DNA from: Candidatus Latescibacterota bacterium
Lineage (GTDB): Bacteria > Latescibacterota > UBA2968 > GCA-2709665
DNA length: 64,000 nt
NCBI GenBank assembly: GCA_963667175.2
Contig: CAXXXF010000002.1
Coordinates: forward strand, 64,001-128,000
Reading direction: 5' to 3'
Within the stretch, counting starts at the first letter, position 1, and each line of letters opens with the position of its first letter. The notes below the pieces were generated by a model that was given only the letters and a program-made list of their open reading frames with translations, had not been told where the DNA came from and did not search any database. This document shows positions 53,637-60,199 of the stretch, one piece after another. The translations under genes were made by a program, and so were the position numbers.

Positions 53637-54703
53637 CTAAATTTCGGCGTAGTCTGGGTACAGCCTTTTCAGTTTGATGCGAGCATCTTCGGTCGTGAAC
53701 CGCCAATTGACAGCCTTGCTTTTGTTGTTGCGGTCGTTCGTCCAGGCGGAGACCTGCTCTTTGAGGGATTCGATATCGGGGATGCGTTCCTTCAAGCATT
53801 GGTTGCTCAAGACGCTCATTTCGATCTCTGCGATGTTGAGCCCTGCCTGCAGCAGGCAGGCGGGCGTGTGCGTGTTGAGGTTATCACACACCAGGACGAC
53901 GGTTTCAGCTTTTGGGTAGTCCATATCCAGGAGATCCTTGATCTCCTGGGCCCAGTCCACTGCGGTCTTTCGTTGTCTGACACACACCTTGCGCCAGCCC
54001 GAAAGGGGTTCGGTGAACATGAAGTTCACAGCGGTTCCGTTCCGTTCATACTCGTAGTCGTAGCGTTCAGGTTGGCCCCGACGTGTTGTGAGGGGAACAC
54101 GCGTCTCCTTGACCAACTGCACCGGGTGTTCGTCCATATTGACCACGGGCCTCAAGGCGTCGTAGGGCCGCTGATAGACGTCCAGGATATCCTCCATCGC
54201 GGCGACAAATGCGGCGTTCTGCTTGGGCGGAATCACCCAGCACCTTCTCAGGTGAGGCTTACGTTTGTTTTTTTAAGCGTCCGTTGCACCGTTCGATATG
54301 AGATGCTATCGACAATCTCTAAAGCCACGAGTTCATCGGCTAAAAGCTTCAGCGTCCACCGCTTACGTCCCTTTGGGGGTTCACTGCAAGCCAACGCGAT
54401 CAAGCGGGCTTCCTTGGCCCCATCCAGCTTCCTTGGTGTGGGTGGATGCGCGCGCTTCTTTCGGTCAAGGGCCGACTCCAGGCCCCCCAACACAAAACGC
54501 TTACGGATGCCCTCAACCGTAGACCGATTGCACGAAAAGGCCTCCGTGATCTGACGGTCCAGCCACGCCGGACCCTCCGCATCCGCCTTCAGTAGTATGT
54601 GGGCGTGCCTGATTCGGTAGGCTTGCGTCTTGCCTTTGTTTACCAGATCCTGCAGACACTCACGTTCTTCGGGACTCAGACGCACAACGTATCTCTTAGG
54701 CAT
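53637..54703 (-). pseudogene. IS630 transposase (-1 frameshift at A7, 54268-54274) with an internal deletion
   Basis: OrfA HTH ...RTLKK; -1 frame KKNKRKPHLRRCWVIPP...MDE...DYEYERNGT...DNLNTH; the usual HYTPKHGSW block is missing. Confidence 0.85.
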
Positions 54704-54765: not shown

Positions 54766-56190
54766 GGGCAAGTACTATTTTTAGTTGAAACGGGAGAGGC
54801 GTTTAGTCGGCGGCGAAAGCCTCTTGCGCGTCGTGATCGAGGTTGAGGTGTTTTTGTAGGGCAAGTCTGAGTATAGGAAGAAAGCGGTATCCTTTGATTC
54901 TCCGCAGTCGTGGCTCGATGTCTAACAGCGCGGCTGCCAACCACCGATATCGCTGATCGGAGTTGTTCCATCGTTTTACATTTCGTGTGCGCTGAGCGAC
55001 CATGGCGTTGAGGGATTCGATACAGTTGGTGGTGCGGAACGATTGTTTGAGCTGTGGCATGAGCCCCAGCCGATGGAGGGTGAGGGTTTCTTCGAGCCCT
55101 TCCTCGAGGCTGTTCAGTGCCGATGCGTTCCTCAGCGCCAGGGAGGGTTTGAGGGCCTGTAGCGCGGCTTTGGCTTCGTTGTAGGTCTCCTTGTCGTACG
55201 CATCGTGGAGGGCCTTTCTGACCTCATCCTGCTGTGATTTTGGCAGATAGGCGATCACGTTTTCCCGTTTGTGCCACTGGCAGCGTTGAATGGCGACGTA
55301 TCCGGATAGGGCCTTGGTCAGCGCGGTCCGCAACCCCTTCGAGCCGTCGATGAGGCACAGCAGCCCCTGGTGATACTGCAGTCCGCGATCGATGAGCGAA
55401 TTGACAAACTGCCGGCACACGCGCTCATTTTCACTGGCGGCCTGCACGAACCCCAGCGGGACCTTGTCCCCGTCGATTGTCACGCCAAGGGCGATGATCA
55501 TTTGCTGATCGGCAAAGGTCTTGCCATCCATAAACAGCCCCACCAGGTCATAGCCGGCAAGCGACCGTTCTTGAAACTGCCTCAGCTTGGCCGCTGATGT
55601 CTTTATGAACCGCTTCGAGACCGTCGACGAAGACAAGCCAAACGCCTCGGGTACCGCCTCTGCGCAACTGGCGTAAGAACGCGTGGCAAGGCCGCCCAGA
55701 ACGCGAAGCAGCAACCCTTCGTCCATGTCTCTGGGGCGCTGCAAGCGGCGATACGCCTGTAGAGGCACCTCCTCATTGGCTTCCACGTCGCGCACCCTCG
55801 GTACCGCCACGGGCACTTTCTGGTCCGATAGATACACCGATCCACGTTGCACGCCCCACCGGCGATTCGGGGCCTTGTCTGCTTTACGACTGTATCTCTT
55901 GCCCGTCAACGCGGCGACCTCATTCTGCAAGATTTCTTCCACGGCGGCCAGACCCAGAGGGATCAGCGACTGGATCAAGGCCACACGGACGTCAACATCC
56001 TCCAGCATACCTGCGGAGACCGCCCTGGAACTCACAACACCTTCCGTGTTCAACTTGACTTCACGAGACTTCGATGATACCTTGCTCATTACAGGCTCCT
56101 TTCGTATGAGGATACAGTATTCTACTCGGGACTACTGTATCCAATTTACATCGGAGCCTCTTCTATTTCAACTAAGATAGGTACATTCCC
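54766..56190 (-). mobile_element. IS256-family insertion sequence (1425 bp)
   Basis: Terminal repeats GGG(C/A)A(A/T)GTAC.....TTAGTTGAAA; 8-bp duplication TTAGAAGT (54758-54765, 56191-56198). Confidence 0.92.
54803..56089 (-). CDS. IS256 (mutator) transposase
   Basis: FMDG, LIDGSKGL, QRCQWHKREN, RTTNCIESLN. Confidence 0.93.
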   Translation of the reverse strand: MSKVSSKSREVKLNTEGVVSSRAVSAGMLEDVDVRVALIQSLIPLGLAAVEEILQNEVAALTGKRYSRKADKAPNRRWGVQRGSVYLSDQKVPVAVPRVRDVEANEEVPLQAYRRLQRPRDMDEGLLLRVLGGLATRSYASCAEAVPEAFGLSSSTVSKRFIKTSAAKLRQFQERSLAGYDLVGLFMDGKTFADQQMIIALGVTIDGDKVPLGFVQAASENERVCRQFVNSLIDRGLQYHQGLLCLIDGSKGLRTALTKALSGYVAIQRCQWHKRENVIAYLPKSQQDEVRKALHDAYDKETYNEAKAALQALKPSLALRNASALNSLEEGLEETLTLHRLGLMPQLKQSFRTTNCIESLNAMVAQRTRNVKRWNNSDQRYRWLAAALLDIEPRLRRIKGYRFLPILRLALQKHLNLDHDAQEAFAAD

Positions 56191-56565
56191 TTAGAAGTCA
56201 ATAGGTAGTAGACAGTGTGCGCAAGTCTGTGAATGAGAGCGGATACAGCGTTTGGATGGCTGTTTGTCAAAACGAAGCGAAATATCGCTATCCAATATGC
56301 CTTTAGCGCGAACTGTTCTTGATGTGGCAATATCGGGGGACACATTTGCAGACGATACTGAGTTTCCCGCCCTCCCTGGCGTGCAGCGAAACATAATCGC
56401 ACCCTCAGGTTTCTCTCCCCCCTTTTATCTAGTTCAATCCCAAATGCGTGAGTCATGGTTTCTCGAACCGAATCCGTCTCGGGATCAACCTATCTGTTAA
56501 TTTCCCATGGGTTTTCTGCTTCAGCCGGAAATGACAAGAAAACAAGAACAATGGCCCAATCGAAT

Positions 56566-56646
56566 GGACAAGGACTGTTTTTAGTTGAACAAGGAGAGGC
56601 GTTTAGTCGGCGGCAAAGGCCTCTTGACGGTCATGATCGAGTTGGA
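56566..56646. repeat. Diverged ~80-bp copy of the IS256 downstream end
   Basis: Collinear with 54766-54846 (TTAGTTGAA..GGAGAGGCGTTTAGTCGGCGGC..CTCTTG..TGATCGA). Confidence 0.8.
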
Positions 56647-56700
56647 GTCCATATACATCATTCCTTCTTTTTTTCGTTTCCTCCTTCTTCCGTTCTCCAT

Positions 56701-57102
56701 CTACGGCTCTGCAGTGTCAGGCAGATGCAAGACGGCCTCATCGAAGGTGTAAAAAGCGCTCAACTCGTCCTCGTCGGAAGCCGTTTTTCTTGCCTTGCAT
56801 AAGATCAGGGCATCTGCGAAGTCCGCCTCCGTCCTGCGAAATGCCTGCAAGGCGCTCCAGACCACCTCGTCATCCTCGAAGCGTATGTTGGAATCCTGCA
56901 GAAGGGTATTGACCAGATCGATCAAGTCGGCCCGGGTCGCGCGATACCGGCGGCCAGCCAAAGTCCACGTTGTTTCCGCCAGGACCACGTCCGTAATGAG
57001 AACGCGCTCACCGCATTCAACAATGCGACGCGCCCGTTCAGCCTGCGCTTCGTCGTCTCTCAAGAGATAGCGCAGCAGGACATTGGTGTCGATTGCGATC
57101 AA
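56701..57102 (-). CDS. vapC: VapC/PIN toxin
   Basis: MIAIDTNVLLR, VLAE, ADFADAL, YTFD. Confidence 0.92.
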   Translation of the reverse strand: MIAIDTNVLLRYLLRDDEAQAERARRIVECGERVLITDVVLAETTWTLAGRRYRATRADLIDLVNTLLQDSNIRFEDDEVVWSALQAFRRTEADFADALILCKARKTASDEDELSAFYTFDEAVLHLPDTAEP

Positions 57103-57335
57103 GGCGTACGGTCCCGCGTTCTTTCAATGGCGTCTTGGCGCGACGCCTCGTCTGAAACCGTCGGATCCCCGTCAAGGCGCGCCAGGCATCCCCAGGCGCT
57201 GCCGGGCTGCTGGCGGACGATGGTTATGCGGCCGTCGGCCACGAAACTCAGGCACTCGTCTCCCGGCTCGATGCCGGCCAAACGGCACTGATCAGCAGGT
57301 AGCGTTATCTGTCGCTTGGCGCTGACTTTGGGCAC
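57099..57335 (-). CDS. AbrB/MazE-type antitoxin
   Basis: KVSAKRQITLP...GIEPGD; 4-bp overlap with the PIN gene. Confidence 0.88.
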   Translation of the reverse strand: MPKVSAKRQITLPADQCRLAGIEPGDECLSFVADGRITIVRQQPGSAWGCLARLDGDPTVSDEASRQDAIERTRDRTP

Positions 57336-57439
57336 GGTCTTCTCCGATGATGGTGATCACGTCAGAAATTCATAATGAATTGCTTTACTTAACAAAATAT
57401 ACCAAGAAGAATAAATTAATACAAAGAAAATAACTAGAA

Positions 57440-57700
57440 TGTAAAGAAATCGAGCAGAGAAACGGAAAAAAGGAAGAATGTAGAAGGAAGAATTAAGAGC
57501 AGGACAAGCGCAGAGCACCTCTATTCTCCATCCCGAGATTTTTCCTTCTTCCTTCTTCCTATTGCCATTCTCCTTCATATTCAGCCCATCAGTCACATGA
57601 TTTTACTTCCTTGTTTTTCCGTTTTCCTTCACATTCAGCTCATCGATCACGTGATTTTCCCTCTTTCCTTCTTCCTTTTTCGTTCTTCCTTTCTTTTGGT
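57440..57700. repeat. Heptamer-repeat inverted junction 1 (purine tract, ~45-bp core, pyrimidine tract)
   Basis: AAGGAAGAATGTAGAAGGAAGAA..AAGAGCAGGACAAGCGCA..ACCTCTATTCTCCATCCCG.GATT then TTCCTTC runs; the core recurs near 58561. Confidence 0.8.
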
Positions 57701-58039
57701 CTGTTCAACGAATGCCTCGCCTCTAGAAGTGCGGCGGTAGCGCTGGTGGCGGCTCGTGGGCTTGTCCGGGAGCGTCATTTCAATCAATCCGGCCTCCAGG
57801 GCAGGCTTTTGGTACGATTCGATGAAATGGGGTCGGTCCTTGAGTTCCAATCCTGCCTGGATGCTGGCACGGCTCATCTCTCCAGTGAGTACAGTCACCA
57901 GTTGTTCGACCTGGTCGGCGACCTGGTCGATATCTTGTCGGGTATCTTGTGGGGTGTCTTGACCCGTCCCCCTATTTTTCAATGACTTATCTTGTCCGGT
58001 AACTTGGTCGGTCGCGGCGAGTAATGCCCGCTCATGCAC
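57647..58039 (-). pseudogene. C-terminal winged-HTH fragment of a Fic/RecG-C-like protein
   Basis: QDTPQDTRQD..QV repeats, LELKDRPHFIESYQKPALEAGLIEMTLPDKPTSRHQRYR; runs into the repeat tract. Confidence 0.7.
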
Positions 58040-58049
58040 CGGGACTTAA

Positions 58050-58363
58050 ATGAAAAAGGAAGAATGCAGAAGGAAGAAATCAAACCAAAATCAACCCAGC
58101 TTCTGTCGCCCGCATTCAACAACGCGACGCGCCCGTTCAGCTTGCGCTTCGTCGTCTCTCAAGAGATAGCGCAGCAGGACATGGGTGTCGATTGCGATCA
58201 AGGCGTTTGGTCCCGCGTTCTTTCAATGGTGTCCTGGCGCGACGCCTCGTCTGAAAACGTCGGATCGGCTTCAAGGCGCGCCACGCATCCCCAGGATGAG
58301 AAAGGAAGAATGCAGAAGGAAGAAGGAAGAAATGAAAACCAAATCAACACAACCTCTGTCTCC
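58050..58363. repeat. Two direct ~61-68 bp repeats flanking a 186-bp copy of the TA junction
   Basis: ATGA.AAAGGAAGAATGCAGAAGGAAGAA(GGAAGAA)AT.AAA.C.AAATCAAC.CA.C.TCTGTC.CC at 58050-58110 and 58296-58363. Confidence 0.85.
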
Positions 58364-58500
58364 GGGATTCCAGTTGGTAGAAACGTTGACGGGAAGTACG
58401 AACGCCCAGTTGTTACCAGGTGGCCTGATTAGGCCGATCCTGAAGTGGCCGCATCAGGTCGATCCTGCAATGGATTCATATGGGCGATCATTGACAATTC

Positions 58501-58700
58501 TGAAGTAAGAAGGAAGAAATAAAAACAAAATGAAGAAGGAAGAATGCAGAAGGAAGAAGGAAGAGCAGGACAAGCGCATATAACCTCTATTCTCCATCCC
58601 GCGATTATTCCATCATGTTCTTCCTTTCTTGTTCCTCCTTCTGCCTTCTGCTATTTTTTCCTTCTTCGTTTTCCCTTCCTCGTTTTTCCTTTTTCCTTCT
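58501..58700. repeat. Heptamer-repeat inverted junction 2
   Basis: GAAGGAA/GAATGCA tract, the same core as junction 1, then a TTCCTTC/TTCTGCC tract up to the four-helix-bundle stop. Confidence 0.8.
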
Positions 58701-59054
58701 TCATTTCTCTACATTTCTCTTTGCCGTCCGAATTGAAGCGACGAAAATCGCGGTCAATTCACCGCATTCATTTGTCAGGCCTGCAAGTCGCTCCTCAGGG
58801 ACGATTCCTGAGTCGACGAGTAGCTCAAGCCAATAACTGGTCTCTTCGACCTCCTTCAAACATTCGCCAGCTTTTGCGATGAACTCCGCTTTGCTCCGCG
58901 CACGATATGCCTCCCGGTAATTTGCCCCCACCGACGTTCCGGAACGGATCATTTGTCGGCCAATGACTTGAGCCTCGGCCCGCCTGGGAAGATCCGAATA
59001 CAGGCGAATGACCTGCAGCGCGAACGCCTTCCTCCGACTCCGAAGATCGGCCAC
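58701..59054 (-). CDS. Four helix bundle protein (TIGR02436 / 23S-IVP / Avd-like)
   Basis: F..QVIRL..LP...IGRQMIRSGTSVGANYREA..ARSKAEFIAK...KEVEETSYWLELL. Confidence 0.92.
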   Translation of the reverse strand: MADLRSRRKAFALQVIRLYSDLPRRAEAQVIGRQMIRSGTSVGANYREAYRARSKAEFIAKAGECLKEVEETSYWLELLVDSGIVPEERLAGLTNECGELTAIFVASIRTAKRNVEK

Positions 59055-59490
59055 TTCCTCCTTCTACCTATTGCCATTTTCCTTCATATTCAGCCCATCA
59101 GTCACACGATTTTCCTTCTTCATTCTTCCTTTTTCCTTAGATTTCATGAATTATCTACTTCCGAGTTCTATATCTCCACTCTCGAGGGCCGAGGCCTGCG
59201 GAATACCCTGAGCGTGGCGCCCTACCAGATTGTTGTCAATAAGGTATATATCGGTACACCCCCCGTCAATGCATTATCTTTCGTTGGACGGCGTGGAATG
59301 CGCGCGGACGCGGAGAATCCGCTTCTCCGGACGGCGGCTGCGGAATCGTTTCCCCTTGCTTAAGTCTTCGATTAGAGATATTTTCATTTTTACGCACCAG
59401 GGCGCTATCGCAGGACCGGAAATCGGCGCGGCATAAGCCGCCGGATTCTGACGCGTCCGGATAGAGCGTGACCAGGTAAGGAGAGGCAGG

Positions 59491-59880
59491 ATGGCGCAGC
59501 GATGGAGGGATTGGCTCGCCCAGGCGGAGCACGATTTTGAACAGGCAACGGCTTCTCGCAATGACGGTCGTCATGATTGGGCCTGTTTCGCCGCTCACCA
59601 GGCCGCAGAAAAGGCCGTCAAAGCGCTCCATCTCTCAATGGGACAGGAGGCATGGGGCCACGTTGTCGCCCGCCTCCTGTCGGAACTCCCTGAAGCGCCG
59701 CCGGAGCAGATTGTCGAGCAAGGACGGGCCCTCGACAATTACTACGTATCGACACGCTACCCGAACGGGCACCCTGAAGGGGCGCCCTACGAACACTACG
59801 GACCGTTGCAGAGCGATCAAGGATTGAGATATGCCGGTGACATCCTCAACTTCGTCCGTCAAGCGGTGGCCGGGGAGTGA
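59491..59880 (+). CDS. HEPN domain protein
   Basis: DWLAQAEHD, WACFAAHQAAEKAVKA, WGH, YVSTRYPN. Confidence 0.92.
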   Translation: MAQRWRDWLAQAEHDFEQATASRNDGRHDWACFAAHQAAEKAVKALHLSMGQEAWGHVVARLLSELPEAPPEQIVEQGRALDNYYVSTRYPNGHPEGAPYEHYGPLQSDQGLRYAGDILNFVRQAVAGE

Positions 59881-60199
59881 AACTGTAATTGAAGGGCTTC
59901 GCCGCTGGTGCACGGATCAGTCTGAAGAGCGTGGGGACCTGTTGGCATTGGGATATTTCGGATCCTATGCTCGAGGGGACGCGAGTTTCGGCAGTGATCT
60001 CGACCTGGTGGCGGTGGTGGAGAACAGTCCCGCTCCATTTTTCGAGCGTGCGCGGTCCTGGCCGACACACACCCTGGCCGTACCCACCGATCTACTTGTT
60101 TACACTGCTGAGGAATGGCAGACGCTGTGCGACGACGGAGGCCGTTTCGCCAGTGTCCTCTTAGAAGAAACAGTCTGGTTGGTCGGTCCACGATCGTAA
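59831..60199 (+). CDS. Minimal nucleotidyltransferase (MNT)
   Basis: FGSYARGD..FGSDLDLV, PTDLLVYT.EEW. Confidence 0.9.
   Translation: MPVTSSTSSVKRWPGSETVIEGLRRWCTDQSEERGDLLALGYFGSYARGDASFGSDLDLVAVVENSPAPFFERARSWPTHTLAVPTDLLVYTAEEWQTLCDDGGRFASVLLEETVWLVGPRS

Follow-up and report, generated by a model that had tools for sequence, protein, structure and literature searches.

A four-helix-bundle gene between heptamer arrays in a Latescibacterota toxin-antitoxin island: a proposed intervening-sequence-type cassette and the wider tie of its family to 7-nt repeats

Structures have been solved for proteins of the S23p/TIGR02436 family, but a function has been lacking since the family was discovered in the intervening sequences (IVS) of rRNA genes. 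The closest described relative of the locus reported here is such an element, the S23p 23S rRNA IVS, known from helix 45 in Coxiella burnetii and also from Leptospira (PMC4990558). As that study presents the Coxiella element, two to three strain-variable tandem copies of GACAGAT and one degenerate copy precede the S23p open reading frame (ORF), a 28-bp terminal stem closes the element, and RNase III cuts at the first heptamer (PMC4990558). We have analyzed a 64,000-nt stretch of DNA from a Candidatus Latescibacterota bacterium (the window; contig CAXXXF010000002.1, here C2, positions 64,001 to 128,000), in which a gene for a four-helix-bundle protein of the same PF05635/TIGR02436 family lies among arrays of 7-nt repeats at 56.6-59.2 kb. 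We read this gene and the 7-nt arrays at both its ends as one IVS-type four-helix-bundle cassette in a toxin-antitoxin (TA) island, the rest of the block being cassette debris, and we put the probability of this reading at about 0.55. The likeness to the Coxiella IVS, as far as that element is described, goes beyond the protein family: tandem heptamers stand directly before the ORF, their copy number is variable (contigs of other sequencing runs differ from the window by -7, +21 and +7 nt within the arrays, all whole units), complementary termini may enclose the ORF, and the element would likewise rely on a host transcript. Unlike the Coxiella IVS, the window element is outside an rRNA gene; its neighbours are protein genes, and no rRNA family was matched by Rfam in 56000-59600 even at E up to 1. 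Its arrays are longer and stand on both sides, an extra internal array and core are present, and gene-less copies and trapped gene fragments lie alongside.

The original prediction for this DNA tied the heptamer repeats to the four-helix gene. This link is correct and far more general than had been supposed. Flanks of PF05635 genes were scored over 200 nt on each side, a flank passing when its best 35-nt window had at least 18 of 28 matches at lag 7. A first set comprised 50 of the 64 PF05635 places from 41 related genomes; one place was dropped at a contig end, leaving 49 loci and 98 flanks. Sixty-two of these flanks pass at lag 7, with only 1, 3, 2 and 4 passing at lags 5, 6, 8 and 9, and both flanks are periodic in 23 loci and one in 16. 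The background is 11 of 1980 200-nt windows (20 random 20-kb stretches from 10 relatives) and 262 of 27595 in the window's own genome, and the enrichment at the relatives' flanks is about 100-fold over random windows. The second set consisted of the best 80 of 596 confirmed stretches from a subfamily motif scan of one-genome-per-species contigs, and covered Bacteroidota, Patescibacteria, Firmicutes, Proteobacteria, Acidobacteriota, Planctomycetota and others. The motif was built from a 14-sequence subset of a 28-sequence alignment because the full alignment was too diverse. Here 88 of 158 flanks pass at lag 7 (6, 5, 30 and 2 at lags 5, 6, 8 and 9), and of the 74 loci with long flanks, 31 are periodic on both sides and 19 on one. 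Windows at least 400 nt from the gene at these diverse loci are periodic in 21 of 296 cases. At four loci, three from Flavobacterium and one from a Bacteroidales (L083, L093, L110 and L148), the gene flanks score as high or higher at lag 8 than at lag 7.

The arrays abut the ORF, the upstream one ending a median of 28.5 nt before the hidden Markov model match and the downstream one starting a median of 55 nt after it. The 40 upstream arrays of the diverse loci have 39 different units. When the upstream arm was compared with the reverse-complemented downstream arm by local alignment (score of at least 30), 48 of 78 diverse loci had complementary arms; 9 had direct ones, and the best of 20 shuffles gave 0. 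Local alignment was used in place of whole-flank RNAduplex scores, which do not discriminate, shuffles scoring nearly equally. Since periodicity and arm pairing are found with nearly as many units as arrays, period and pairing are conserved and the sequence is free. Stop triplets occur slightly more often than expected in the array units (0.53 versus 0.41 +- 0.05 upstream, 0.28 versus 0.22 +- 0.04 downstream), a weak effect. In the open-access literature (PMC, bioRxiv) we found no general link of the PF05635/TIGR02436 family to flanking heptamer arrays, only the single Coxiella case, which points to the tie across phyla being undescribed.

Membership of the window protein in the family is clear. 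It matches PF05635 with E 3.6e-20 and 72.6 bits (cut-off 33.8) and TIGR02436 with 95.2 bits (cut-off 24), and residues 6-114 match the sequence of the solved chain PDB 2rld_A with E 1.2e-22. The polar motif RxxxSxxxNxxE, quoted for the PF05635 family in PMC3936711, is present, R37, N45 and E48 varying hardly at all across the 28-sequence alignment; the G that opens the published form does not stand at that spacing here. The gene is under purifying selection, with a ratio of non-synonymous to synonymous substitution (dN/dS) of 0.12-0.26 in 15 of 15 pairs among six congeners. The own genome holds, besides this one intact PF05635 gene, a single remnant of another.

The block at 56.6-59.2 kb is AT-rich, with a GC fraction of 0.36-0.50 against about 0.60 in the surroundings, and its features are listed in Table 1. 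As predicted, 7-nt tracts are concentrated there: 9 of the 11 period-7 rows that Tandem Repeats Finder (TRF) reports for the whole window fall in 57470-59138, starting at 57470, 57542, 57665, 58052, 58302, 58502 (9.3 copies), 58637, 58655 and 59112. One strand carries GAAGGAA and GAATGCA units, the other TTCCTTC. The main tracts had thus been listed correctly; the tract at about 56660 is weak. The contents given for the spaces between tracts, namely the four-helix gene, a non-coding piece, a partial TA copy, a Fic fragment and an intact AbrB-PIN pair, are also as claimed, with all coding pieces on the minus strand. The assembly itself appears sound over 58030-60000. Contigs of a public run, X1, which may be the source sample of the assembly, tile 58030-58172, 58143-58513, 58486-58785 and 58778-60000 with no differences or unit-sized gaps only, and since they bridge the junctions they speak against a chimeric assembly of that part. 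Promoter-like sites (2 versus 2.1 in shuffles) and terminator-like sites (5 versus 3.9) show no excess over shuffles. Among public sequencing runs, none of RNA was listed for 56600-59400.

Table 1. Features of the heptamer-array block (window positions; labels such as D1 and I1 denote repeats)
Feature	Position	Strand	Evidence
Weak TTCCTTC-type tract after PIN stop codon, left edge of block	56648..56700	.	D1 copy at 68% identity, and D11; no TRF row
PIN-domain toxin gene (VapC-like), intact	56701..57102	-	PF01850, E 8.1e-13
AbrB/MazE-type antitoxin gene, intact, overlaps PIN start	57099..57335	-	PF04014 E 0.0045 and TIGR01439 E 1.7e-4, both below cut-off; position and overlap with PIN
Gene-less cassette copy (A): array, 53-nt core 57493-57545, arrays with two ~50-nt modules 57556-57606 and 57618-57655	57440..57700	-	
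130-aa ORF, only Fic-family C-terminal winged-helix domain (Fic-like_C); last codons run into heptamer array	57647..58039	-	PF21247, E 1.9e-24, residues 42-104
Repeat module 1: GAAGGAA/GAATGCA array and ~35-nt tail related to congeners' core	58048..58117	.	D5
Non-functional duplicate of PIN 5' end and AbrB 3' end, 186 nt	58110..58295	-	94% identity to 57011-57196 (D2)
Repeat module 2 (array and tail)	58298..58370	.	D5 at 79%; TRF
Non-coding ~130-nt piece, 25-nt unit x1.9; found in four congeners too	58371..58500	.	
Cassette 3' hairpin (B): array, core 58558-58612, complementary array	58502..58700	-	I1; fold; unit-sized indels between samples at 58683 and 58685
Four-helix-bundle protein gene, 117 aa, TIGR02436/PF05635 (23S rRNA IVS protein family)	58701..59054	-	Profile matches
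Cassette 5' array with one ~50-nt module	59054..59145	-	TRF, D4; +7 nt unit variant at 59122 in run X1

Two inverted arrangements of tracts around one core, both able to fold into long hairpins, had been predicted. The shared core is real, 57467-57548 and 58533-58614 being 88% identical over 82 nt (D6), and both copies of the ~50-nt core sit between a GAAGGAA-type and a TTCCTTC-type array, i.e. arrays of opposite polarity. The genome holds three copies of the core, the third on another contig (C15:137668-137719). Hairpin B, taken as minus-strand RNA over 58495-58712, has a folding energy of -70 kcal/mol and a z of -4.19, with 0 of 200 shuffles as good. Over the longer minus-strand stretch 58495-59150, the minimum-energy fold pairs the outer arrays (z -3.18, 0 of 20 shuffles), the inverted score of the directly flanking arrays lying at 26, under the threshold of 30. 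In Rfam searches the long hairpin of the window matched plant microRNA precursor families, all below threshold and at best with 39.4 bits versus a gathering score of 85; these were discarded as hairpin look-alikes.

Five congeners carry orthologues with 81-95% protein identity at the syntenic locus next to HEPN/nucleotidyltransferase pairs. They share one order in the direction of the gene: a GAAGGAA array, the gene, a GAAGGAA array, a core beginning GCAGGAYAAKCGC, and a TTCCTTC array. The complementary partner therefore lies just past a short core downstream of the gene, and the gene itself stands between direct arrays. Deletions are predicted from direct arrays around a gene, and copy A is one such deletion: 57467-57629 equals 58533-58614 fused to 59054-59138 (D4, 57545-57629 versus 59054-59138, 88%), without the 439 nt (58615-59053) that hold an array and the four-helix ORF. 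From the sequence, then, the second predicted hairpin is the same cassette with its gene deleted. The array-core unit, which congeners carry in tandem, has two more copies in the modules at 58048 and 58301. In one genome (G007, L011:200-2940), 2.7 kb of intergenic DNA between ABC ATPase and adaptor genes is made up of five composite units of about 390 nt; these combine heptamer arrays and a conserved hairpin core, and a four-helix gene stands at the centre of the stretch.

The trapped pieces are, as far as their sequences tell, fragments or duplicates of neighbouring genes. The TA duplicate starts within a 10-nt stretch shared at 9 of 10 positions between the PIN gene and the core module of the congeners; such a left junction fits template switching, not site-specific capture. 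The duplicate and 57011-57196 differ at 12 positions, one of them at an A of the first copy, with no adenine bias on either strand. Two congeners have this TA operon interrupted by 1.2 kb that consists of arrays and the non-coding piece seen here, the two operon parts overlapping by 42 nt. The Fic remnant is likewise present in congeners as C-domain ORFs only, of 118 and 161 aa; the window ORF has 12-nt tandem repeats at 57907-57961 that encode a short repeated peptide before the winged-helix domain. The expectation that fragment ends coincide with arrays was borne out in the window and in five congeners, homologous segments ending within about 10 nt of arrays, and segment order differs between species. 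Because the same pieces are common to the five congeners, they are old debris and not fresh captures. The whole probably reflects a long history of slippage, template switching and recombination at the arrays and not cassette capture.

The proposed cassette would run, in gene direction, from a GAAGGAA array through the ORF, a second GAAGGAA array and the short core to the TTCCTTC array, which may pair either with the adjacent array or with the one in front of the gene. Copy A would have lost its gene by deletion between the two direct arrays, and the AbrB-PIN pieces, the Fic remnant and the non-coding piece would have become lodged between array-core modules, probably by the processes just named and with no dedicated capture enzyme. 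We infer that the arrays act as cassette termini. By analogy with the Coxiella IVS, the stem formed by paired arrays in a host transcript would be cut by RNase III. The original prediction had made the repeat hairpins recombination or processing sites; the processing half has this Coxiella precedent (PMC4990558) in its favour, and the half concerning site-specific capture is not supported.

Other loci give the clearest view of the cassette boundaries. In the clear examples, a unit of array, ribosome-binding site, ORF and complementary array exactly fills the gap from one operon gene's stop codon to the ribosome-binding site or start of the gene that follows. At another site, 3 of 16 homologues of a DNA methyltransferase carry the cassette within the ORF (L001:1106-3316(-), L017:3-2177(+) and L016:1106-3314(-)), and 13 of 16 read straight through. 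None of the 13 uninterrupted homologues has an array at this point, so here the arrays arrived together with the gene. The host reading frame runs on uninterrupted across about 135 cassette codons in two of the three genomes, where it differs from the frame of the four-helix gene; the third genome loses it within the first heptamer array. A change in unit number shifts the frame by one for every 7 nt, and could thus switch the methylase on or off. Such patchy presence at identical sites leads us to infer that the cassettes are or have been mobile.

Several observations weigh against this reading. Hairpin A (57436-57702) is no more stable than its shuffled versions (-66.3 kcal/mol, z -0.71, 50 of 200). 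The arrays directly flanking the window gene are direct (score 42) and not inverted (26), and in the window's clade direct flanks outnumber inverted ones by 24 to 11 among the 49 loci. Inverted-arm mismatches compatible with G:U are no more frequent on the sense than on the antisense strand at 83 loci (114 versus 118, p 0.84); this test therefore lends no support to RNA-level selection of the stem, and the arrays may equally well act at the DNA level, as terminal repeats. Arrays were not detected at 10 of 49 related and 24 of 74 diverse loci. The related genomes are not independent samples, and the diverse set of 80 was drawn as the best hits of a single subfamily motif. The methyltransferase cassette replaces about 30 nt and is without target duplication, in the one insertion compared with empty sites, and in the six congeners the gene is syntenic and conserved. 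Finally, 354 period-7 arrays with a wide variety of units occur in the own genome, on every large contig and mostly far from any four-helix gene; set against one intact PF05635 gene and one remnant, most arrays are without an adjoining gene.

How arrays may come to stand alone is illustrated by one syntenic locus marked by AATTCTT arrays, where the flanking DNA is 84-94% identical in all genomes compared. In each of these genomes the four-helix gene, or what is left of it, lies between AATTCTT arrays. The gene is intact in G001. It is present as two pieces (aa 1-52 and 34-105) in G005, as aa 1-14 joined to 90-105 in G008, as aa 1-14 joined to 93-105 in G004, and as aa 90-104 in G010. In the own genome (G000; C14:349600-349830, locus L191) there is a 28-aa remnant, aa 72-99 at 86% identity, which belongs to another four-helix clade than the window gene and has inverted AATTCTT arrays about 170 nt apart. 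At a second locus the cassette is present in one species, two have the downstream array only, a fourth retains the upstream array with ~35 nt from the start of the gene, and a fifth lacks both. From these two loci it follows that cassettes do decay to bare arrays. Units differ between paralogues of the same genome and are constant within a protein clade from genome to genome (AATTCTT, AAGAAGG, ACCGTCT, AGCTGAT, AAAAGAG). Among the 314 own-genome arrays with a 7-nt consensus, 160 are within one mismatch of six units that flank four-helix genes in the genus; letter-shuffled unit sets reached 49.6 on average over 300 trials and 114 at most. On sequence grounds this sharing fits either scars of past cassettes or a relation in trans between protein and repeats, and does not decide between them. 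AATTCTT arrays are confined to the gene's own locus in G001 (12 of 12 hits) and G014 (9 of 9), which speaks against active dispersal for that clade; the backwards-read control of this pattern search is nearly a rotation of the unit and hence uninformative. The longest TTCCTTC arrays of the own genome, up to ~200-340 nt, are intergenic and stand beside GAGACGG-type arrays (C15:401640-406520; L193, L194). An integron reading of this region (C15:401.6-406.5 kb) was considered, as a tyrosine recombinase gene lies 3.6 kb away, and rejected, the genes between the arrays being large ordinary ORFs of 400-1260 aa.

A system acting in trans, in the manner of repetitive extragenic palindromic (REP) sequences and REP-associated tyrosine transposases (RAYTs), is an alternative that we consider rather unlikely. 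In REP/RAYT systems a single-copy gene is flanked by short repeats that are scattered through the genome, and gene clades match repeat families. The four-helix gene, too, sits among repeats that are also scattered in the genome, with different repeat families for different clades, and its protein could bind arrays of its own heptamer or help them to spread. The faithful pairing of clade and unit, the 160 matching arrays, the conservation of periodicity without sequence and the purifying selection on the protein all speak for it. So does the binding of nucleic acid and polymerase by Avd of the diversity-generating retroelements (DGRs). Avd is a homologue within the same four-helix-bundle fold family (PMC10053308). 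However, for three of its four big unit families the own genome is without paralogues, so that arrays can persist in the absence of the gene, AATTCTT arrays show no dispersal in G001 and G014, and clade-shared units may be plain vertical inheritance. Unlike RAYTs, which are recognisable HUH nucleases acting on a conserved palindrome, the four-helix family has to our knowledge no catalytic site or motif, and the repeats are tandem 7-mers of free sequence. A DGR-like role proper is unlikely here, with no reverse transcriptase (RT) on contig C2 and no adenine-directed differences in the 186-nt repeat pair. Less probable still is that the arrays are ordinary slippage-prone simple repeats, at which the four-helix gene tends to land or survive. 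Cyanobacterial short tandemly repeated repetitive sequences (STRR) are heptanucleotide tandem repeats of this kind. Marine Beggiatoaceae have TAACTGA heptanucleotide repeats (PMC4679880, PMC4853749), and heptanucleotides are described as the commonest 5-11-nt repeat class in most prokaryote genomes, located just upstream of start codons (PMC4679880). The arrays here are also intergenic tandem 7-mers, often right before start codons, many per genome and in several unit families; the 354 arrays mostly far from four-helix genes, the unit-sized indels, and the sibling species that at one locus keep the array before the start codon without the gene fit such an origin. On the other hand, landing in a direct array would yield direct flanks, whereas inverted ones prevail in diverse phyla, the uninterrupted methyltransferase homologues are array-free at the site where three carry the cassette, and neither the ~100-fold enrichment nor its fall from adjacent flanks to distant windows would be expected. 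No associated gene is named in what PMC4679880 and PMC4853749 say of such repeats, and half of the arrays here share units with four-helix cassettes of congeners.

The original prediction itself was of an integron- or CRISPR-like system (CRISPR, clustered regularly interspaced short palindromic repeats), in which hairpins serve for recombination or processing, flank the captured cassettes and are bound by the four-helix protein. We now regard this as the least probable of the alternatives, and indeed very unlikely. Integron arrays hold gene-sized segments between structured repeats in one orientation, and the block shares this layout. That segment ends lie so near the arrays, that segment order varies among congeners, and that both trapped pieces begin at one point of the repeat module, after ATTC, would suit such a system, as would the reports of PF05635 genes inside cas loci (PMC3936711, whose account does not mention repeats) and of PF05635 among CRISPR-array-linked proteins (PMC10910872). 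What was found in place of complete promoterless genes with attC sites, though, is a 186-nt duplicate from the neighbouring operon, an ORF reduced to one domain, and a stretch of non-coding DNA; the only intact cargo is the AbrB-PIN pair at the left edge, and the duplicate is without adenine-directed changes. The tandem heptamer tracts vary in length, stand in both orientations and are irregularly spaced (74 to more than 580 nt), unlike a CRISPR array, and at least one junction lies at a microhomology. The prediction had rightly said that the window holds no RT or integrase: PF00078 (RT) has 13 matches in the genome and PF00589 (tyrosine recombinase) 3, none of them on contig C2, and no recombinase, RT or cas-like gene was found in the 56.6-59.2 kb stretch. 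Ten near-identical 463-aa RT ORFs (PF00078, E ~1e-36) lie on C4, C6, C14, C15 and C18 and presumably encode group II intron proteins. Arrays at most other loci enclose only the four-helix gene, and a genome-wide search under a strict threshold for inverted array pairs enclosing at least 250 nt found 4, all at the window locus, and no other gene-sized cargo. Fragmentary cargo, a microhomology junction, the missing recombinase and RT, gene-only enclosure elsewhere and the age of the shared pieces thus leave integron- or CRISPR-like capture unsupported, and the IVS-type cassette with its debris remains the reading we prefer.

As for the neighbourhood, two insertion sequence (IS) genes lie directly to the left of the block, an IS630-like one in two ORFs (53637-54703(-)) and a Mutator/IS256-family transposase (54803-56089(-), PF00872, E 2.3e-41). 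To the right of the cassette, overlapping ORFs at 59491-60199 encode HEPN (PF05168) and nucleotidyltransferase (PF01909) proteins, the pair type that also stands beside the four-helix gene in congeners.

Heptanucleotide repeats, the commonest mid-sized simple repeats in prokaryotes, are without an agreed origin. A far-reaching view, which we offer as speculation and think rather unlikely in its full extent, is that PF05635 proteins and heptamer arrays form one widespread undescribed system, each clade with its own 7-mer. Cassettes would seed arrays that outlive the gene, as scars or as sites on which the protein acts, much of the prokaryote 7-nt excess, including STRR and TAACTGA repeats, would trace to them, and the fixed period might reflect measurement by a pentameric protein or the copying of ends. 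The gene-heptamer link gives a protein family that has long lacked a function a defined nucleic-acid partner to be tested, and a candidate source for the repeats. A cassette link would also explain why PF05635 genes are found within operons, restriction genes and cas loci. The window locus further suggests that repeat-bounded "cassette arrays" can arise when a single small element decays and recombines, no capture enzyme being needed.

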